The notes: generated by a model from the sequence alone, not told the origin. A DNA stretch of 64,000 nucleotides from Folioceros fuciformis (GCA_049999805.1 JBNGIO010006273.1:53637-117636), one strand, 5' to 3'. Shown: positions 1 to 21,680, numbered from the stretch's first letter. Program-made: numbers and translations.

Positions 1-51
1 AACATTTGGTGACCCACCAATGGACTGTGATACTTTGATATCATTGTCCTT

Positions 52-1430
52 CTATGTGTCCAACACTTTGGCGATCCAAAAAGGCCTATTGTCTTCATAT
101 GTCTCGCATGGGATGGTAATCATGTGCTCTGCTTCTATCTCTAATACATCTCCATTGAAGCTGTCACGGTCGTTGCAAACATGAGCCTCTCTTCTATATG
201 CACCCACATACATGTCTCTTCTAGGAACTTCTCGTATCCGTGGGTTTTCCACCACCAATGCATTTGGCACGTGTAACGGTGTATTCAACAACTCTGCCAC
301 ATCATGATTATACCATCGCCATGGCCACAAGAGGTCTTGCTCCACACCCGAATTTATTATTTGAACGATGGCCTCTTGCTCTGCCCAAAGTGAATCCCAT
401 CAGATGTCCTCGCCCACACCTAAGTGCTGCCGTAATTTGCACTCCAATCTTGATCGAATCTGTGACAAGTTATATCCTGGCACATTGTCAGTAATAGTCT
501 TCTATTTCCTACTCCTGAGCTGCAGATGCATTAGTGGAGCGGCTTTCATAACCCCATCCGAAACTAGTTAGAGAAATTCTATACCATCATCAAGTGACCA
601 GTATTGATCGAAGGAATACTGTTTCCCTCTCGTCATTGTAACAGATCCACGATCTCCGCGGCTCTCCTTTGTGATCTTGAATTGGTGTTGAAAAGATATA
701 TTATGGAGCTGATGAACTGCTGCAACATTCTGATACCTTGCTTTCCCATACGGTATACTCCACACAAACTTTCTAAAGTCCGGCACCTCTTTCACCTCAT
801 GAATGTCTCGCATGGGGGTATACGTGTTCTACATGACTGTAATAAGTTTTGGTAAAGTCAAAGCTTCCTTCCAACCGAGTGCCGTTGAAAAACTGGAAAA
901 CATATGATCTACCTGGTCGTGCGTATGGCCCACTAACAAGAACCCCACTTTTATCTTCACGTAAGCCCGCTTTTCCACTGATCAAATAAGAAGAAAGCAA
1001 CGCGTTTTTGTTCTCCCGTGCAATGTTGTCTAGCTGCAAGTATAGAACTCCAGGTAGCAGGCCGTCGTACTCGTGTATCGCGTGCTGAATAATTAATATT
1101 GTTAGGTTTGTATCGTTTCGAATGTTCCCAAACTTGATGAAGAGCTTGGGTGTCATAGTCTTGTTGTATATCAGACACCCTACCACATGCACATCAAGGA
1201 GGCCAACATCCGCCAAATCTTTTGGTACTCGAACGAAATTGGGCAGCTGAGTCTTTTGTTGATCCATTCCATCCACTGATATCCCAATGTACTTCCCGGG
1301 GTCGCCATAACATTTGACCCGACGTTTGATACTCTTCTCGCGCTCTACTTCCAATCTATGTCGATGTATCTTCAAGTCAGATTTGAAGCCCTCTACAAAA
1401 AATGCATGGAACTTCAAATCAGAATAAGAA
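52..1430 (-). pseudogene. Putative DNA-transposon transposase remnant (RNase H-like, DUF7869-type motif set), frameshifted
   Basis: ORF 797-1441 has GISVDGMDQQKTQLP and LPGVLYLQLDNIARENKN. After a frameshift near 960 the minus strand reads VKIKVGFLLVGHTHDQVDHMFSSFS. Fragments 568-813 and 52-345 continue downstream. Family label is from motif recall. Confidence 0.7.
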
Positions 1431-1450
1431 AAAATACGCACTAATGGTGG

Positions 1451-1672
1451 GTGTGCGCCGGTCTATCGGCGCACACCTACCACCAGTGCATTGTGGAAAA
1501 ATGGCCGGGGTGTGCCAGTAGACCGGCGCAGCCTGGCTACTGTGTCTAGAATGGGCGTTTTTCGTCGCTTTCTGTGAAAATTGCCGGAGTGCGCCGGTAG
1601 ACCAGTGCACTCTGGCCAACTTGAAAGACTTGTAGATTGGGGAGGGTGTGTGCTGGTCTACTAGTGCACTCT
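1451..1672. repeat. Cluster of four hairpin motifs, consensus GTGCGCCGG-TCTA/TAGA-CCGGCGCAC
   Basis: Copies at about 1451-1476, 1511-1530, 1583-1616 and 1648-1672; another copy at 6772-6794. Confidence 0.8.
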
Positions 1673-1749
1673 AGTCATTACAAGTGATTTTTCCCTTACG
1701 TAGGCTGGTATGACGTAGTTCTTGATTTGTGATTCTGCTTTTTGTGTAG

Positions 1750-4700
1750 TTTTTCTGAACGAAATGCTTTTTGGCAGAAACCAGTGGACATCACAGACCT
1801 TGAAGCATTGCTGAAGCCTTTTCAAGATTATGTTTATTCTGCTAGAAACTGGAAGCGCATGGAAGAAGAAAAGCAGAGACTCGCAGATGCAGATATGGAT
1901 GCAGGATGATCGGAGTTCAAAGTCCCAAACAGTAACATTAAGACTAAGTATCAAGTTATCCATCAAAACATTCTGGAGATGAAAGCATTTCTGGTAAAAC
2001 GATCGTATACTCTCTTATTCACAGATTTGCCTCGCGGACTGCAATGACATGAATACGACAGGCAGCTGACAAGCGAAGAGCTTGATGTGGGCAAGCGGGT
2101 ATGGTATCCCTACCAGGAACCCGCTCACATGTATCGTGGCCACATCAATCCCACGGTCGTTGTAGGTTTCCCTGGAATCGCTCCCCTCTTAGCCTAGTCA
2201 GCTATGTTTATCGCTCCCCTACACTAGTCAGCTCTCCCAACCACGTACCTACCAATCTAGCCACACGTCCCATTAATAGGTAGGCACCATTCCTTCACTT
2301 GGAAGGGCCCCAGTACCTCCCCTACCGATTTCTACCTCCCTACACTCAATACCTTTTCCTCACAAGGCTCCCTACGACACACTCCTCTACCCACAATCTA
2401 GCTACTCGTCTCCCTACGCCTAGCAANNNNNNNNNNNNNNNNNNNNNNNNNNNNNNNNNNNNNNNNNNNNNNNNNNNNNNNNNNNNNNNNNNNNNNNNNN
2501 NNNNNNNNNNNNNNNNNNNNNNNNNNACATCAATCCCACGGTCGTTGTAGGTTTCCCCGGAATCGCTCCCCTCTTAGCCTAGTCAGCTACGTTTATCGCT
2601 CCCCTACACTAGTCAGCTCTCCCAACCATGTACCTACCAATCTAGCCACACGTCCCATCAATAGGTAGGCACCATTCCTTCACTTGGAAGGGCCCCAGTA
2701 CCTCCCCTACCGATTTCTACCTCCCTACACTCAATACCTTTTCCTCACAAGGCTCCCTACGACACACTCCTCTACCCACAATCTAGCTACTCGTCTCCCT
2801 ACGCCTAGCAACCGACAAGTTTTCCTCCGAGCCTACTCCGCTCCCTCCAACTCTGTTTATTGTTCGCCTACGACCTTCAACCTTTCCCGCGTACCTTCAA
2901 CACGTCCAGTTAGTAGGAAGGCACCATTCCTTCACTTGGAAGGGCCCCAGTACCCCCCCCTACCAACTTCCAACTACCTACACCCAGCACCTTTCCCCAC
3001 AAGTCTCCTCACAACACCTTCTACACGATCCAACTCCGCGTTTCCCTATGTTCAAGACTCCCAACCAGACATCACAAGAACCTTTGCAATCGGCAACAGA
3101 AAGGGCACTCGCAGCTCCCCCTCCTGCCAAGATGTCCACGCAGGCTTACGAAAATTGGTTCTCTATTCGTCACGAAACACTTACAATCAAAGAACGAGGC
3201 CTCTGGCTCAAGTTCTTCATTCTACTTATATAGGATGGCAGACGGCTTCCTACCTACCACTAGCCGCGGCCAGCTTTAACTATGCACACCTACCAAGAGG
3301 CTAAGACCTACCAATAGTTGCTAAGGCAGTGCGCGCTGATGAAGATTAGGACTGTCGGTGCCGCCATAGAAGATTCGTTGACCCCCTTTTTCAAAAAGGT
3401 ATGGCTAGGATGACTCCTGAAGGGAGGCAGAGTCTAAAGGCTGAGCCATTGGGCCCCCCTCCATTATTGGGATTCGTCTTCTTGTGGATCTACGAGCTTC
3501 CACCGTACCTTCCTCTGTGTGGATCTCTTGGGCTATCCCTTCACCACTACCTACAAGTTTCGTAGGGGAGGGTTCCCCTTGTTCCTCAACTTGAGGCTCC
3601 TTCCCTACATAGGGTGGGAATGTTCCCTCCGTAGCTAGGGTACCTGTTGCTTCCTCCGTAGGTAGGGTCCCTACCATTCCTTCCCCTCCTCTCGTAGGTA
3701 GGTTCCCTACCCCTTCTCTCATAGGTAGGTTCCCTACGAGAGTAGGTACCCCTTGTTGCGTGCTCTCCAGGTCCATACTGCTGTCCTCTTGAAAGTCTGT
3801 TGGTAGGGGCACTGTCTCCAGGGCCTCATGGTCGTCATCATGTGGCCGAAGACACCTTCGCCTTGCCAATGCTGCCAGTTCCTTGTGATGAGCGAGTAGA
3901 TGTTGGTGTAGGTGGAGGTTGCGATTCTGTTGAGCTAGATCTATGGTATCCATGTCAACAACCCAATCCCCACCCTCGCATCTACTCTTGTAGATATCCC
4001 GTTCAGCCTCCATCGCCCCTACCTTCAACTGTAGGTTAAGGTTTTATTGATGAGTTGCATGAAGCTTGGTCATGCACCCCATCAAGTAGGCATAGTCAGC
4101 ACGAAACCTACGAGCTCGAACCACCAGCATCCTGTGAATCTTGGTCTGGTGCTCAGCTTCTTGTTGTGCTTTCTCCTGCCGAAGGTCTTCTAATTGGATG
4201 GTCAATTGTTCCCTCTCCACTCGCTCTCGTTGCCCTGCTTCAAGGCGTTACTGGAGTTCTTGGTTCGCTTTAGCATTCTGTGCCTCCAACTCATCTAGCT
4301 TGCCTTGTAAATCCTTTGCAAGGTAGACTTGTTCCCGTAGCTGTTCCTCCACCACTTTCCTAGTTTCCTCAGACTAGGTGAGGTCCCTTCGACATGCAAT
4401 GATCTCATGGGATAAACCTTGTTGGGAAGTCTGCAACGTGGTCACCTGCTGGGTCAACGTCTCCAGTCCTTGCCTTTGCTCACCATCCTTGAGGAGATAT
4501 TGTTCTCTCTCCTTTTCCAATTCCTGCACTTTGGATTCTAGTCGTGCCTGGTTTGCATCCCGACTTATGTCCTCCTGTAGACGGGCTGCAATCATTGCAC
4601 GTGCCTCTCCCCTATTGATGTTTTGTAGCTATTGGCCACAGCGAATGATGTTGCTTCACACTCCCAACAGCAATTCTAGTGCCCCAGATGGTAGGGTGGT

Positions 4701-6479
4701 GTTGGGTGACCTCCGCCCATCTATGGTTTTATCCAGGATCCCAATACCATCGCTCTCCTCTTTCGACCTACCGTACACCTATCGGATGCTCTGCACAGTC
4801 CACCACTGAGGGTCAGTCCTTGCGATTCGTTCAGGTAGGGATTCAAACTCCTCCTTCGATTGCTTTATGTTGGTATAGCACTCCTTCACCAAGCCTTCAT
4901 GAACATACGACCAATGTCTGCCCTATATCCAGTCAAGCTAGATGTTTGCGTCACATGCCCAAGTCCGTAGGTCTATCAAATCCCTTGAGTTCAGTTGGCC
5001 CCCAAAGCAGGAAAAGGACGGAACTTTGGTTCGGGGAGAGCTGGCTGCCCTCGTGGGTCGTCCCCTACTGCCAGAACCCACCTGAGTGTTGTTGGAGGTC
5101 CGCGCCATAGTTGATGGAACAAAACCCCAAGAATGTCGATTGCCCTCCTTTACGCAAGGTTATACCCCTACCTCCGTAGGCAACTGTTCCCAACTTCTGT
5201 CCAACTGATTTCACGTCCCCTGCACCGTTCCTCCCTATGGCTCTCACCACAACAAAGCCCTTTCTCTCGCTCTGAGTCCGCTTGGTCACAACAAGTAGGT
5301 CCCCGGCGTAGGTGTCTTGTCGCACAGCTACTTCCTTGATCCCCGCTATGTAGGTAGATGTAGTTCCCTACGTGGAGGTGAGCACCCTTCGTTGATGGGA
5401 CACCTTAGGTAGGGACCCCTTTAAATACCCTCTTGTCGTAGGTATACTTCTATATGTAGTAATTGCCCTTAATAGATACCCTACACAGGTGTCCCCTTTT
5501 CTGTAGATAGCTTGCAAGCCCTTCACAACTATATTTCTTATTTAGGTACTACCTCCCACATAGATATCCTCCCTACGTGGGCATACTTCCCTATAGGTAG
5601 CCATCCCAAAGAAGGTAACTTCTTTATGATACTACCCCTTATTATCGCCACTCATCTAACCTACCAAACCAAGACCAAACAAAACTGAAAATGATATTAG
5701 CCGCTCTCTACCTATTGCGGGTACTTGCCAAAACCCCGCATTCCACACTTGAGGACATGATTCGAGGGTTTTCAAAATGCACCAACAGTAATGTGTATAG
5801 GGTGGTTCTTACGCATGGCGTGGATCTTATTACATAGGCTAGGGAAGCACTTCGGCCATGGTGCAAGAAGGGAACCATTCAGACCTTAGTGTGGGAGAAG
5901 ACTAACATACCTCCCAATGCAGGCACAGTAGAGACTGTCAAGTATTTAATTGTTGGAAGTGCAATTCACTCTGAAGCTCAGGACACAAAAGCTTCATTAT
6001 TTGCGAATCAGGGATTTTTTCTTCTGAGAGTTATAAGGCATGGTGCTGTGGTGAAGAAACATCTGTTCTACTCTGCAGATTCTCTAGTCGTCTCGCCATA
6101 TCAAAAGCCCCTTGGTTTAATGGGTATGTTGGTGAATATGTTGTCTGCTGAAGGGGACTGGGTAGTGGATGCTTGCGCAGGATCTGAGTCATTTCTACAG
6201 TCTGTGATTCAAAGAGGAAGGCATGTTGTCGCAGTGGATATTGATGTAAGATGTACCACTTACGTCATGCAGCAGGTGAATGGCATAGGCTCTTTGCCAG
6301 ACTCTGATGAGGAGATCAGCACAGAACATTTCTCGCACGGGCCCACGAAGTTTTGGGCCAAAGTAGTCTGCGCGGATGGTAGCGTGGATCGTCGGATGCA
6401 GGTATTCAGTTTGTTGGGAAGAAAACGAGAGATTTTTTCACAATTGGACGACACACCAGCGAAAGAACTTTATGCATGA
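1750..6479 (+). pseudogene. Beta-class DNA amino-methyltransferase-like gene (N6_N4_Mtase-type), split by the 2086-5747 insertion and carrying in-frame stops
   Basis: 5' part ~1950-2085 reads YQVIHQNILEMKAFLVKRSYTLLFTDLPRG (motif IV-like). 3' part from 5748 in the same frame reads IQTLVWEK...SPYQKPLGLMGMLVNMLSAEGDWVVDACAGS...HVVAVDID (motifs X/I/II-like). Stops at 1907, 2045 and 5835. Confidence 0.75.
2086..5747. mobile_element. Large solo-LTR-like insertion (TGTGG...CCACA) with 5-bp TSD CTTGA and an internal minus-strand coiled-coil ORF
   Basis: CTTGA at 2081-2085 and 5748-5752. Inverted termini TGTGG/CCACA. Minus ORFs 3405-4028 and 4374-4595 share a frame that extends with stops to about 4920. 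CCTAC-rich. Contains an N gap. Confidence 0.8.
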
Positions 6480-7814
6480 CTATATGAGATGAGAGTGGAA
6501 AAGTTTCGCCTGAGATTGTGAAAACCCCGCATTTCTCTGTTCTAGATGTGGAGGGGGACAACTTCGGAGACACAGAGGGCCAGCGACTTAAAGACGTAGA
6601 AGTTGTAGTCGATTCTGAGGCCAATCAAGACATTCATGTTTTTGTTTAAAGGTGATTTTGAGAGTAGTGGAAGTGGATGGTCTATTATGATTATGAACAA
6701 ATTTGACTATTTCGTTTTTAAATCCATGGGATGCATATAGCCAGTTTCCTGTCCTTCAAACTTACACTTTAGGGCGCCGGTAGACCGGTGCACCGAAAGT
6801 AAGATTCTTTTTTTTCTCAAAGTTTTGGAGTTTGAAGGGTTTATGTACCACTTGGTTGTGGGCTTGAAGCAAATCTGTGGAAATCGATTATGTTCACTAC
6901 ACGTCAATATAAGTGGTTTTTGAAAAAAAAGTCTAAAATGTGGATATGTGACTAGGATGGTGTAAATTCAAATGTGCACCAAACGGGCTTCATGGAAAAC
7001 GACCGTTAGGTGCACAGCATGTTAGTTCCTTCACCAACACTTATATTGGCTGGTACATAAATGCAAAGTAACACACACAAGCAACCAATTGCTGACTTAT
7101 ACACTATTAGCACTAAATTTGCCTACTCCACTTATTGCCTAAAGAAAGAAGCCTTCATTAACACACATGTGTCATCGTATACTCACCTATCTATGATTTG
7201 CACTCATGTGCCTACTACAGCTATTGCCTAACGAAAGAAGCCTAAATTCAGGTTGTTTGTTCTTGTCAACAATTTGGACATATTGGTTGTTGTAGCATGC
7301 CTCACAACATTCATTGCGGCGCACCTTTAGTATGGATTGTTCGCGAAGCGTTGTGTGTTTTGTGGCACTTCATAAATATCTTGTGAATTGGCTTTGGATT
7401 TGGATAGTTGAGGATAGCAAACCTGTAGGGTTATTAAAGCCCAATGTGCTTAGTGTCTAGTTGAGTATCATTTTTTTAGATTAGCTTAAGCTAATCTTTA
7501 GGAAGCTTCTTGCGCAGCTTCCTGTGAGCTTCTTGTGAAGCTTTCTTGGGAGCTCTTCTAGAGGGTATAAATACCCTCTTGAGTTCCCTTGCAATATTGA
7601 GACAGTGGGAGTGTGTGAGAGACCTTGCTTTCTCATCTCCTCCTTCACCACGTGGCTCTCCTGGCATTCCTTCAAAACCGACCACCATTCAGCGAGCTCA
7701 ATTCATCCGAGGACATCATCAATGTGACAAGCCCGTAACGGGTTGTAGTGGGCCAGAATCCCGCTCTTTGCAGCCCACATCAAGCTAGCTCATTGCAACC
7801 AATTGGCCAATTCA

Positions 7815-8000
7815 TGTGCTCAAACTACATCCGGCTCATTTACATACCCAAACCACATCCGGCTCATTTACATACCCAAACCACATCCGGCTCATTTACA
7901 TACCCAAACCACATCGGCTCACTAACATGCTCAAACCGCATCGGCTCCTTCATATGCTCAAACCAGATGGGCTACTTCATATGCTCAAACCACACTGGCT
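7815..8000. repeat. Tandem repeat, ~28-bp unit (CATCCGGCTCATTTACATACCCAAACCA), degenerating at both ends
   Basis: Exact copies at 7828, 7856 and 7884, with degenerate neighbours. Confidence 0.85.
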
Positions 8001-8364
8001 CATGACACTTGGTTGTACATGCTTAGGTCGACCATGGCTAGCCTAGGATTTTCATTTATGACAAGGATTATGATCTGTCTTACATCAGCTGCAAAAACCT
8101 GTAGGTGGCATGGCTCCAAGGTATCGATGGACGTTGAGCTGGGTATCTTGAATTGAGGCAGGTTTTATTTCACACTATTTGCACAAAATCGCGATTGGTC
8201 CTGCCAAACATGGTGACAGCCGCTTGGGTTCGATGAGCGCCCAGCGCTTTCACCTTCAGCGCTTTAGCTCCGGATATTACATTTTGCGAAAAAAGTGGTA
8301 CAATCGGTACAAACACAGAGATCCAAGCGTCAGGCTTGGCATCGGTGAAGAATGAAGAGTGGTG

Positions 8365-9806
<1,442 letters not shown>

Positions 9807-21160: not shown

Positions 21161-21330
21161 TTGCCTTCACACAGGAGCCTAGAAGCAGGATGTCCAATGC
21201 TTGAGAATAGAAGGAGCTCAAGCGCCTAGCTCCTGACAAACAAGGAAGCCACTACTCAACTCGCCACTCATGCCCACAACTAAGAGCAAGGAACCATGAC
21301 GTGGAGTGCTAGAACACCATCTAGTGCAGA

Positions 21331-21680
21331 AGTGTGCCGGTCTACCGGTGCACTTCTGCTCTAGCCGGCTGCTCGAGTGCACCGGTCTACCGGCGCACTG
21401 GAGCGCGAACCGGCCGGAGTGCGCCGGTCTACCGGTGCATTGGAGCCCGAGCCGGCGGGAGTGCGCCGATAGACCGAATATACAAATTCCGGTATATTGT
21501 ACAACCGAATATACAAAATCCCAACTCCAGTGACCGGCGCACTGGTATATTGTATATAGTTTCAAGGCCAACCAGGATGACCCAGTTTTTGTGTGAGACT
21601 TAACTTGACTTAACTTGAACTTGTCCTTTACTAGAACATGAAGTATTTTGAATAGCTTATGCGCCGGTCAACCAGCGCAC
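21331..21680. repeat. Second cluster of GTGCGCCGG-TCTA-CCGGCGCAC hairpins
   Basis: Copies at about 21332, 21377, 21419, 21461, 21530 (half) and 21660; the first four are spaced 42-45 bp apart. Confidence 0.8.

Follow-up and report, generated by a model that had tools for sequence, protein, structure and literature searches.

The first 6,800 or so nucleotides of a 64,000-nucleotide stretch of Folioceros fuciformis DNA (GCA_049999805.1, JBNGIO010006273.1:53637-117636; this whole stretch is called the window in the following, and positions are counted from its first letter) contain a gene related to the PF01555 (N6_N4_Mtase) family of amino-methyltransferases, which is interrupted by a nested mobile insertion and stands next to a divergently oriented pseudogene with a DUF7869 domain. 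Profile and fold comparisons support the identification of the split gene as a homologue of the beta-class PF01555 amino-methyltransferases that is now a pseudogene. We consider it somewhat probable (roughly 0.55) that the first 6,800 or so positions of the window hold a dead copy of a class II mobile element that is repetitive in the plant genome; in this element a minus-strand, DDE-like transposase of the DUF7869 type would be accompanied by the methyltransferase-like gene as a divergent accessory gene about 280 bp away. The features in question are collected in Table 1.

The split methyltransferase gene and its nested insertion

Excision of 2086-5747 together with one copy of CTTGA fuses 1742-2085 with 5753-6479 in the same frame, just as an initial annotation made from the sequence alone had proposed, and every peptide string quoted there is present. 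The frame over 1742-2083 reads ...YQVIHQNILEMKAFLVKRSYTLLFTDLPRGLQ*HEYDRQLTSEEL and ends with the residues ...TSEEL; the junction codon is formed by the leftover GA and G5753, giving E, after which the 3' frame continues as DMIRGFSKC...IQTLVWEK...SPYQKPLGLMGMLVNMLSAEGDWVVDACAGSESF...GRHVVAVDID up to the TGA at 6477. The read-through comprises 356 codons and requires no frameshift. It is broken by three in-frame stops (TGA 1907, TGA 2045 and TAG 5835) ahead of the terminal TGA, by which the copy in the window is dead, as had been recognised at the outset.

Both halves match a single protein, the relative P0006, in order, and they are colinear with the rest of the family in alignment. Residues 12-100 of the 5' part align with residues 13-103 of P0006 (BLASTP, E 8e-10) and residues 2-188 of the 3' part with residues 124-317 (BLASTP, E 6e-31). 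The 20 residues of P0006 between these two matches correspond to approximately 16 window residues at the junction; the 5' part alone gave no Pfam match. The gene had been thought to lack its 5' end. It has indeed no start codon, yet it is nearly full length when compared with P0006, with only about 12 N-terminal residues and the start codon unaccounted for.

The nested insertion is documented by contigs from three DNA sequencing runs (X1, X2 and X3) on this organism, which were mapped on positions 1-7200 at a likeness of at least 80%. The 2209, 1893 and 1948 contigs that mapped from the three runs, respectively, cover 30 of 30 bins, and by this mapping the stretch is a multi-copy repeat in all three; the depths given here are sums over mapped contigs and do not equal copy number. 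Four X1 contigs and two X2 contigs join 2080 directly to 5748, skipping 3667 bases (2081-5747) with five ambiguous letters at the joint, and one of these empty-site contigs is about 87% identical to the window. They are paralogous copies, and CTTGA is therefore a target-site duplication. Loose contig ends are found at 2086 (22 in X1 and 23 in X2) with flanks that disagree with one another (agreement 0.35-0.37), and the summed depth over the insert reaches 628-3970 in X1, several times that of its surroundings, so that the insert must be a high-copy element in its own right. As both halves match P0006 in order, as empty sites exist and as the insert is an independent high-copy element, the joined frame is a real gene and not a lucky frame.

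The insert displays the signs of a long terminal repeat (LTR)-type element, namely TG...CA ends, a 5-bp duplication and an empty site in paralogues. A repeat search within 2086-5747 gave no long terminal direct repeats that could form an internal LTR pair, and none of the four longest open reading frames (ORFs) scanned in the insert contained a Pfam family. In the absence of an LTR pair and of retroelement coding domains the insert is best called LTR-like, with a solo LTR and a non-autonomous LTR-type element as the two types that would fit.

Some further observations concern the insert and the runs. Two stretches of 285 nt, 2142-2426 and 2527-2811, are 99% identical and flank a gap of 100 N (2427-2526) inside the insert, and contigs join 2349 to 2816 across this gap region; the duplication probably stems either from the assembly or from tandem repetition within the insert family. 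Positions 7773-7786 are the exact reverse complement of the 14 nt over the left junction of the insert (AGCTTGA/TGTGGGC, 2079-2092), for which we estimate about 0.15 occurrences by chance in 9 kb; either this is coincidence, or a further decayed member of the insert family ends here at a similar target. Run X4, which is guessed to be RNA, gave five mapped contigs, every one of them on the nested insert 2086-5747, and no RNA datasets were listed that match 5753-6800. C-to-T changes (228 places) and G-to-A changes (316 places) are strongly over-represented throughout the contigs of run X3 but not in X1 and X2; in this respect X3 resembles a bisulfite-type library made from the same sample, with a methylation level that is not readable from contigs.

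Table 1. Features of the window from Folioceros fuciformis, with positions counted from its first letter
Feature	Position	Strand	Remarks
DUF7869-type (DDE-like) putative transposase pseudogene	52..1462	-	PF25273 in two frames, one frameshift near 985-995, 4-5 stops
Array of four palindromes	1438..1681	.	1450-1482, 1507-1539, 1586-1618, 1645-1677; between the divergent genes
Methyltransferase pseudogene, 5' part	1742..2085	+	N-terminal helices, motif IV TDLPRGL, stops 1907 and 2045, without ATG
Left target-site duplication copy, CTTGA	2081..2085	.	Empty-site joint with 5 ambiguous letters
Nested 3,662-bp insertion, TGTGG...CCACA	2086..5747	.	High-copy, LTR-like
Right target-site duplication copy, CTTGA	5748..5752	.	
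Methyltransferase pseudogene, 3' part	5753..6479	+	LVWEKTNI, SPYQKP, decayed motif I DACAGSES, LPDSDEEI tail motif
Single palindrome	6765..6805	.	Some 290 bp past the methyltransferase stop codon; identical to the 20-nt motif
Peroxidase exons	8368-9465	-	
Copia-type retroelements	14.5-16.6 kb and 25.3-29.6 kb		
Condensin/HEAT pieces	In window		
ABC-transporter exons	From 53 kb onward		

A divergent PF01555 family

The 3' half of the gene matches PF01555 with 27.7 bits (E 3.1e-6), which is marginal at a cut-off of 26.7. A phmmer search with this half, exhaustive over 1.84 billion representatives, returned 60 proteins at E of 1e-3 or lower, eight of them at 1e-10 or lower and the best at 2.3e-19; word-index protein searches with the same half gave no near or longer relatives. 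The PF01555 cut-off is reached by 25 of the 28 relatives that were scanned (16 of 16 and 9 of 12, at 30-121 bits), and P0046 and P0060 fall just under it. The remaining protein, P0045, was set aside as an unrelated low-complexity match. A profile built from six long members matched solved enzymes, with M1.HpyAVI at 6.7e-10, M.RsrI, CcrM, M.MboIIA and M.BceJIV at about 3e-7, the rotifer enzyme N4CMT at 6e-5 and M.PvuII at 0.09.

The fold comparison was made on the intact relative P0006 and not on the broken protein of the window. The AlphaFold model of P0006, calculated with an alignment of 59 rows, has an overall predicted local distance difference test (pLDDT) score of 67.5, with most 10-residue blocks of the core (residues 70-330) above 90 and a disordered tail. 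Foldseek matched this model to CcrM (6pbd, 4.5e-14), MboIIA (1e-12), rotifer N4CMT (8s9o, 9.4e-12) and PvuII (8e-11), and also to BceJIV and RsrI. The permuted motif order is kept as well: TDLPRGL is found in the 5' part of the window gene and SPYQKP and DACAGSES in the 3' part, and the full-length relatives are alike in this respect. The beta-class amino-methyltransferase homology suggested by the initial annotation is thus borne out by profile and by structural matches.

Organism names were attached to 10 of the 30 relatives looked up. These are six representatives from Adiantum nelumboides (plus a cluster member of 720 residues), one from Adiantum capillus-veneris, one from Ginkgo biloba and two from Chara braunii, annotated as hypothetical or as "DNA methylase N-4/N-6 domain-containing". 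A quick maximum-likelihood tree was calculated from 46 rows, leaving out P0045, duplicate cluster members and rows shorter than 180 residues, with six phage methylases and one bacterial-type row (P0036) as the outgroup. A branch with a support of 99 and a length of 1.05 parts 37 rows from the six phage rows, P0036, P0051 and P0052. The 37-row side holds every named plant and Chara member and no named prokaryote, and judged from its named members the family would be restricted to eukaryotes. The window read-through groups with P0004-P0007 (Shimodaira-Hasegawa-like approximate likelihood ratio test 93) and then with P0008 (89). The family is very divergent. A metagenome scan with a four-row alignment brought up two loci, at both of which a PF01555 gene of the usual prokaryotic type (176-189 bits) has other methylases as neighbours. 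A viral-contig scan yielded 12 distant phage methylases with 20-39% identity, from which the six outgroup rows were taken, and a second viral-contig scan with P0012 gave nothing.

PF01555 is overwhelmingly a family of prokaryotes and phages, which would suit a bacterial contaminant or a gene acquired from bacteria only very recently. Such an origin is exceedingly improbable: the gene is embedded in plant DNA, with a transposase-like pseudogene on one side and a peroxidase gene on the other, a high-copy plant repeat has inserted into it, and numerous diverged paralogues of it exist in this organism. In the tree, the window sequence stands with 36 other rows across the well-supported branch from the six phage rows and P0036, and the family scores 27-66 bits in Pfam as opposed to 92-189 bits for phage and prokaryotic loci. 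Contamination was therefore rejected on the grounds of the plant flanks, the paralogues and the position in the tree.

Two regions outside the methyltransferase domain were also noted. The long members P0009, P0012, P0018, P0028 and P0044 share N-terminal regions of 200-450 residues, in which a G-G-x-H-S-x-E-A-R-type motif is conserved along with a further, helical block. This large extension occurs in long members from Chara, Ginkgo, Adiantum and another contig, and is missing in the clade of the window. In the Atlas it comes closest to clusters of fungal DUF3723 (0.95) and of phage ParB_N (0.93), and one of six members matches DUF6551 (E 0.019). A search against PDB sequences gave no match in the extension, and the AlphaFold model of P0012 has a pLDDT below 50 over residues 1-240. 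These are weak hints that the extension may be ParB-like; a literature search on DUF3723 together with ParB found nothing. Just past the methyltransferase domain, a motif of the form L-P-x-E-x-Q-E-[IV]-G is conserved in most members (LPDSDEEIS in the window) and is followed by acidic low-complexity tails.

The catalytic motif IV of beta-class enzymes has the form (D/N/S)-P-P-(Y/F/W). In the family examined here the aspartate and the second proline of this motif persist. The first proline has disappeared from the whole family, and the aromatic residue from the clade of the window. DLPRGL is present at this position in P0005, P0006 and P0008, i.e. in all three members of the window clade that cover the motif, with mutual identities below 50%; the other members have D-[I/F/A]-P-Y-G in 10 cases, DIPHG in Ginkgo and DPPYG in the bacterial-type match. 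On this alignment DLPRG is a character of the clade and not a product of decay, and the earlier suspicion that it is a defect of the dead copy can be dropped. The DLPRG clade retains the motif for S-adenosylmethionine (SAM) binding, D..xG[ST]G, as well as [N/S]xYQKP and W-x-K-x-N. The window itself has DACAGSES as its motif I, in which the final glycine is changed to glutamate (GSG to GSE), and its relatives keep D..xG[ST]G.

In amino-methyltransferases, it is the aspartate of motif IV that touches the amino group to be methylated, and the flipped-out base is stacked against the aromatic residue. Since an arginine replaces this aromatic residue while the SAM site is kept, proteins of the DLPRG clade may bind SAM and DNA without transferring a methyl group, or may act on an altered substrate. 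Inactive partners of this kind are exemplified by METTL14 and by the domain of DIRS1 elements, according to the available part of a review (PMC4738411). The D-x-P-Y-G relatives are expected from their motifs to be active amino-methyltransferases, more likely for N6-adenine, with the reservation that a PF01555-type domain alone does not fix the specificity for N6-methyladenine (6mA) or N4-methylcytosine (4mC), as the accessible portion of the work on the rotifer enzyme states (PMC8885841).

The relatives might also be ordinary host genes, for example DNA-modifying enzymes of the germline or sperm like the 4mC writers of Marchantia, with the window holding a pseudogenised duplicate. Chara, Adiantum and Ginkgo belong to lineages with flagellate sperm, and it is from these three genera that all 10 named relatives come; this agrees with the use of PF01555-type enzymes in Marchantia sperm, as far as the available literature on them goes, and with the family-wide conservation of the SAM motifs. 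The taxon pattern is weak, as only one third of the relatives looked up carry names. Moreover, the copy in the window belongs to a repeat of which a single genome contains numerous diverged copies, Adiantum has at least seven separate family proteins, motif IV is unlike the TSPPY of MpDN4MT1, and the nearest solved sequences are N6-adenine enzymes. A host gene is thus a clearly unlikely explanation.

The DUF7869 neighbour, the palindromes and the case for one element

The neighbouring gene matches PF25273 in two frames, with residues 83-157 covering profile positions 3-78 (53.9 bits) and residues 159-270 of the next frame covering positions 82-181 (70.8 bits, E 1.5e-19), at a cut-off of 26. 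As the profile is split over two frames, a single frameshift must lie between the two matches; the second frame runs to the window edge with only about four stops. With positions 3-181 of 192 covered across this frameshift the domain is nearly complete, which corrects the earlier impression that this gene, too, seems to lack its 5' end. The frame contains the motifs SVDGMDQ, LQLDNIARENKN and LLVGHTHDQVDHMFS, with two candidate aspartates (in SVDGMDQ and LQLDN) and further acidic residues in GHTHDQVD, and its motifs would fit a transposase of the DDE/RNase H type. The nearest Atlas clusters of the ORF are DUF7869 clusters, all of them eukaryotic, with animal "hypothetical proteins". A word-index search found no relatives of the ORF among longer proteins, and a viral-contig scan with it gave nothing. 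A putative divergent transposase had been annotated at this place: a DUF7869 gene with D..D motifs does lie on the opposite strand some 280 bp from the methyltransferase gene, and it is probably a transposase gene.

The hairpins that had been pointed out beside the gene pair proved to be real. The core of the palindromes is GCGCCGGT(CT/AG)ACCGGCGC within a whole of about 34 bp, and the orientation of the central TCTA/TAGA alternates in the spacer array. A 20-nt core motif has eight matches in the window with three mismatches or fewer, as compared with none in 100 shuffles. When folded as single strands, four of eight copies are better than all 200 shuffles and three more are better than at least 197, with copies 1641-1681 and 21413-21447 unremarkable. 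The copy at 1438-1489 is a near-perfect hairpin of 52 nt (-24.1 kcal/mol, z -7.96). For the copy beyond the methyltransferase gene, which may be a subterminal site of the element, the folding energy is -11.0 kcal/mol (z -5.04), a value matched by none of 200 shuffles. The copy at 1641-1681 is decayed (z +0.58), and C-to-T and G-to-A decay is seen in other copies.

Nine aligned copies (1442-1680, 6761-6804 and 21321-21493) pair in 78.5% of their cells. Seven of 16 arm pairs change on both sides, and 12 cells of this kind were counted, where shuffles gave 6.7 +/- 2.2 and attained 12 in 9 of 500 cases; slid registers are far lower. This is a modest sign that the symmetry of the palindromes may be maintained. 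The number of palindrome units varies between copies, as is seen from two X1 contigs in which 1475-1585 is skipped. A second array of four to five copies with a spacing of 43-45 bp was seen at 21321-21493, beside a tandem repeat with a unit of 21-22 bp (ACACCAAAAGCGACCAAATGT...) and two N gaps. Either a non-autonomous relative of the element or a repeat without relation to it would fit this second array.

The analysis thus shows directly how the split gene is built, its nested insertion, its family and fold, the repetitiveness of the stretch and the motif pattern; that both genes make up one element, that DUF7869 is its transposase and all that concerns function are inferred. A single element would account for this arrangement as follows. 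Its spacer would carry the four palindromes, of a type that proteins bind, with the fifth downstream of the methyltransferase gene, and its methyltransferase family would be derived from bacterial or phage enzymes of the N6-adenine type. In intact copies, the transposase would mobilise the element and the methyltransferase-like protein would have the DNA of the element itself as its target, probably in the palindrome arrays or close to them, with the effect that host silencing is modulated (blunted) or that transposition is coupled to the modification state. In the lineage of the window copy, the 3.66-kb LTR-type element would have inserted just after motif IV and duplicated CTTGA, either as the inactivating event or later, and point mutations would afterward have added the three stops and the change of the SAM-binding glycine.

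Several observations weigh against a single element. The pairing of the two genes was seen only once, in this window, with mapped contigs that are each shorter than 620 nt, and the summed depth in X1 dips over the spacer at 1441-1680 (179 as opposed to 558 and 327). The array at 21.3 kb has neither a DUF7869 nor a methyltransferase ORF nearby, and the palindromes may therefore belong to a separate or non-autonomous repeat. The methyltransferase relatives are neither fused to DUF7869 nor annotated with it (0 of 28 scanned). All of this would be expected if the neighbours had met by chance, i.e. if a methyltransferase gene from another repeat abutted a decayed DUF7869 element and the palindrome array were a third, independent repeat; the PF01555 accessory gene of red algae, which shifts between transposon superfamilies in the available description, likewise indicates that such an association may be loose. 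On the other side, the divergent layout of two genes 280 bp apart resembles that of a two-gene element, and a further palindrome lies beyond the methyltransferase gene. Both genes have also decayed to a similar degree, with three stops in 356 codons in the methyltransferase gene and a frameshift plus four to five stops in about 470 codons in the transposase gene, and their summed depths in X1 are of the same order (524-631 and 420-729, respectively, the transposase part being covered throughout). A chance neighbourhood is thus possible, if on the improbable side.

Other points against a single element concern its parts and its borders. The label "transposase" is derived from motifs and repetitiveness; a PDB sequence search at E up to 10 found no solved relatives of this ORF, and no published function of DUF7869/PF25273 was found in a search of the freely accessible literature. 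The metagenome and viral scans returned nothing beyond ordinary prokaryotic or phage methylases, and DLPRG argues against catalysis in the window's clade. Neither terminal inverted repeats bounding the outer element nor its target duplication were found in 1-9000, a weak negative because the left end of the element lies outside the window; the right end is undefined.

A much wider proposal can be built on a single element. DUF7869-type transposons of streptophytes would carry and spread an amino-methyltransferase in charophytes, ferns and gymnosperms, with an ancestor that was perhaps fused to ParB as in phages; a 6mA or 4mC self-mark on the palindromes would counteract silencing by 5-methylcytosine (5mC) or time transposition, and the DLPRG clade would be a rewired form that reads or blocks these sites instead of methylating them. 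We regard this as doubtful. If transposons did mark themselves in this way, they would be the source of some of the 6mA/4mC signal that is under dispute in large plant genomes. The additional idea of the initial annotation, in which the element served as a vehicle that carried such enzymes into plants, is speculation.

The surroundings are those of plant-like nuclear DNA, with 46.8% G+C over the window and five runs of N. A tandem repeat with a unit of 27-28 bp (CGGCTCATTTACATACCCAAACCACAT) occupies 7805-7995, between the putative element and the peroxidase gene.

Comparison with known systems

DNA amino-methylation (6mA and 4mC) is contested in plants, and candidate writers are few. Land plants show few N6A-methyltransferases according to the accessible part of a 2015 review (PMC4738411). 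What emerges here is a divergent PF01555 family with repeated copies in plant genomes, whose named members are from ferns, Ginkgo and Chara. The copy in the window is dead, and its value is therefore that of a marker of this family. If intact copies were active, they would be transposon-borne writers of marks other than 5mC in land-plant relatives, and a further case of mobile elements that carry tools for the modification of chromatin or DNA. The DLPRG clade is in effect a natural experiment, in which a beta-class enzyme has an arginine in place of the base-stacking aromatic residue. No description of the streptophyte PF01555 family, of DUF7869 or of their association was found in the literature search with its scope as given above.

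The closest parallel is found in red algae. The available text of a preprint (bioRxiv 10.1101/2025.02.11.637652) describes accessory genes of transposons, among them PAG2, which combines PF01555 with a SET domain, and PAG3, which combines a ParB-like domain with a 2OG-oxygenase and is adjoined by tandem inverted repeats; these genes occur in elements of the Plavaka, Zisupton, Mutator and Fanzor types. Like PAG2, the window gene is of the PF01555 type and comes from an archaeplastid; it is a candidate accessory gene of a DNA transposon, and its pairing with a putative transposase gene is known from a single copy. The PAG2 elements, as far as described there, are likewise mostly degenerate, have tandem inverted-repeat arrays beside an accessory gene and are proposed to modify their own DNA or chromatin. 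In contrast to PAG2, the SET domain is absent from the frames of the window and from the 28 relatives scanned, and the neighbour is DUF7869 and not a transposase of the EnSpm/Plavaka, Zisupton or Mutator type. The host lineage is streptophyte instead of red algal, and the window clade has DLPRG; this comparison was made with the description of PAG2 only.

With the N6-adenine enzymes of bacteria and phages (M1.HpyAVI/DpnA-like, CcrM, M.RsrI, M.MboIIA and M.BceJIV), the family shares its fold, the permuted motif order (catalytic motif ahead of SAM motif I) and the QKP motif, and no other solved enzymes match it better in sequence or structure. It differs from them by D-x-P-[Y/H/R]-G in place of DPPY, by an identity of only 13-19% and by the long branch between the two groups, as well as by eukaryotic features such as acidic tails and the conserved LP-E-QE[IV]G motif after the domain.

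MpDN4MT1a/b of Marchantia and N4CMT of bdelloid rotifers are also PF01555-type proteins of prokaryotic origin in eukaryotic genomes, and the rotifer structure 8s9o was among the fold matches of P0006 (9.4e-12). Unlike the window gene, they are host genes with (T)SPPY at motif IV: the available portions of the respective reports give TSPPY for MpDN4MT1 (bioRxiv 10.1101/2021.02.12.428880) and a chromodomain for the rotifer enzyme, which is said there to be without eukaryotic homologues (PMC8885841). S-P-P-Y was found at motif IV in none of the examined members of the 60-hit family, and the family profile reaches rotifer N4CMT at 6e-5 as compared with 7e-10 to 3e-7 for N6-adenine enzymes. A closeness to Marchantia DN4MT1 or to bdelloid N4CMT beyond the common PF01555 domain is therefore not supported by these sequences.

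Mobile elements with a DNA-modification domain of their own are known from several other groups. As far as the accessible parts of the sources go, these include C5 DNA methyltransferases in retrotransposons of dinoflagellates and charophytes (PMC5890265), a TET/JBP gene in fungal Plavaka elements (as cited in bioRxiv 10.1101/2025.02.11.637652) and an inactive N6A-methyltransferase domain in DIRS1 elements that has lost its catalytic residues (PMC4738411), a loss to which the DLPRG clade may offer a parallel. Transposon-borne DNA-modifying enzymes are thus already known, and it is the streptophyte PF01555 repeat family that is apparently undescribed. It differs from all of these cases in that its enzyme is a beta-class amino-methyltransferase, its carrier is apparently a DUF7869 DNA transposon and its hosts belong to another lineage.

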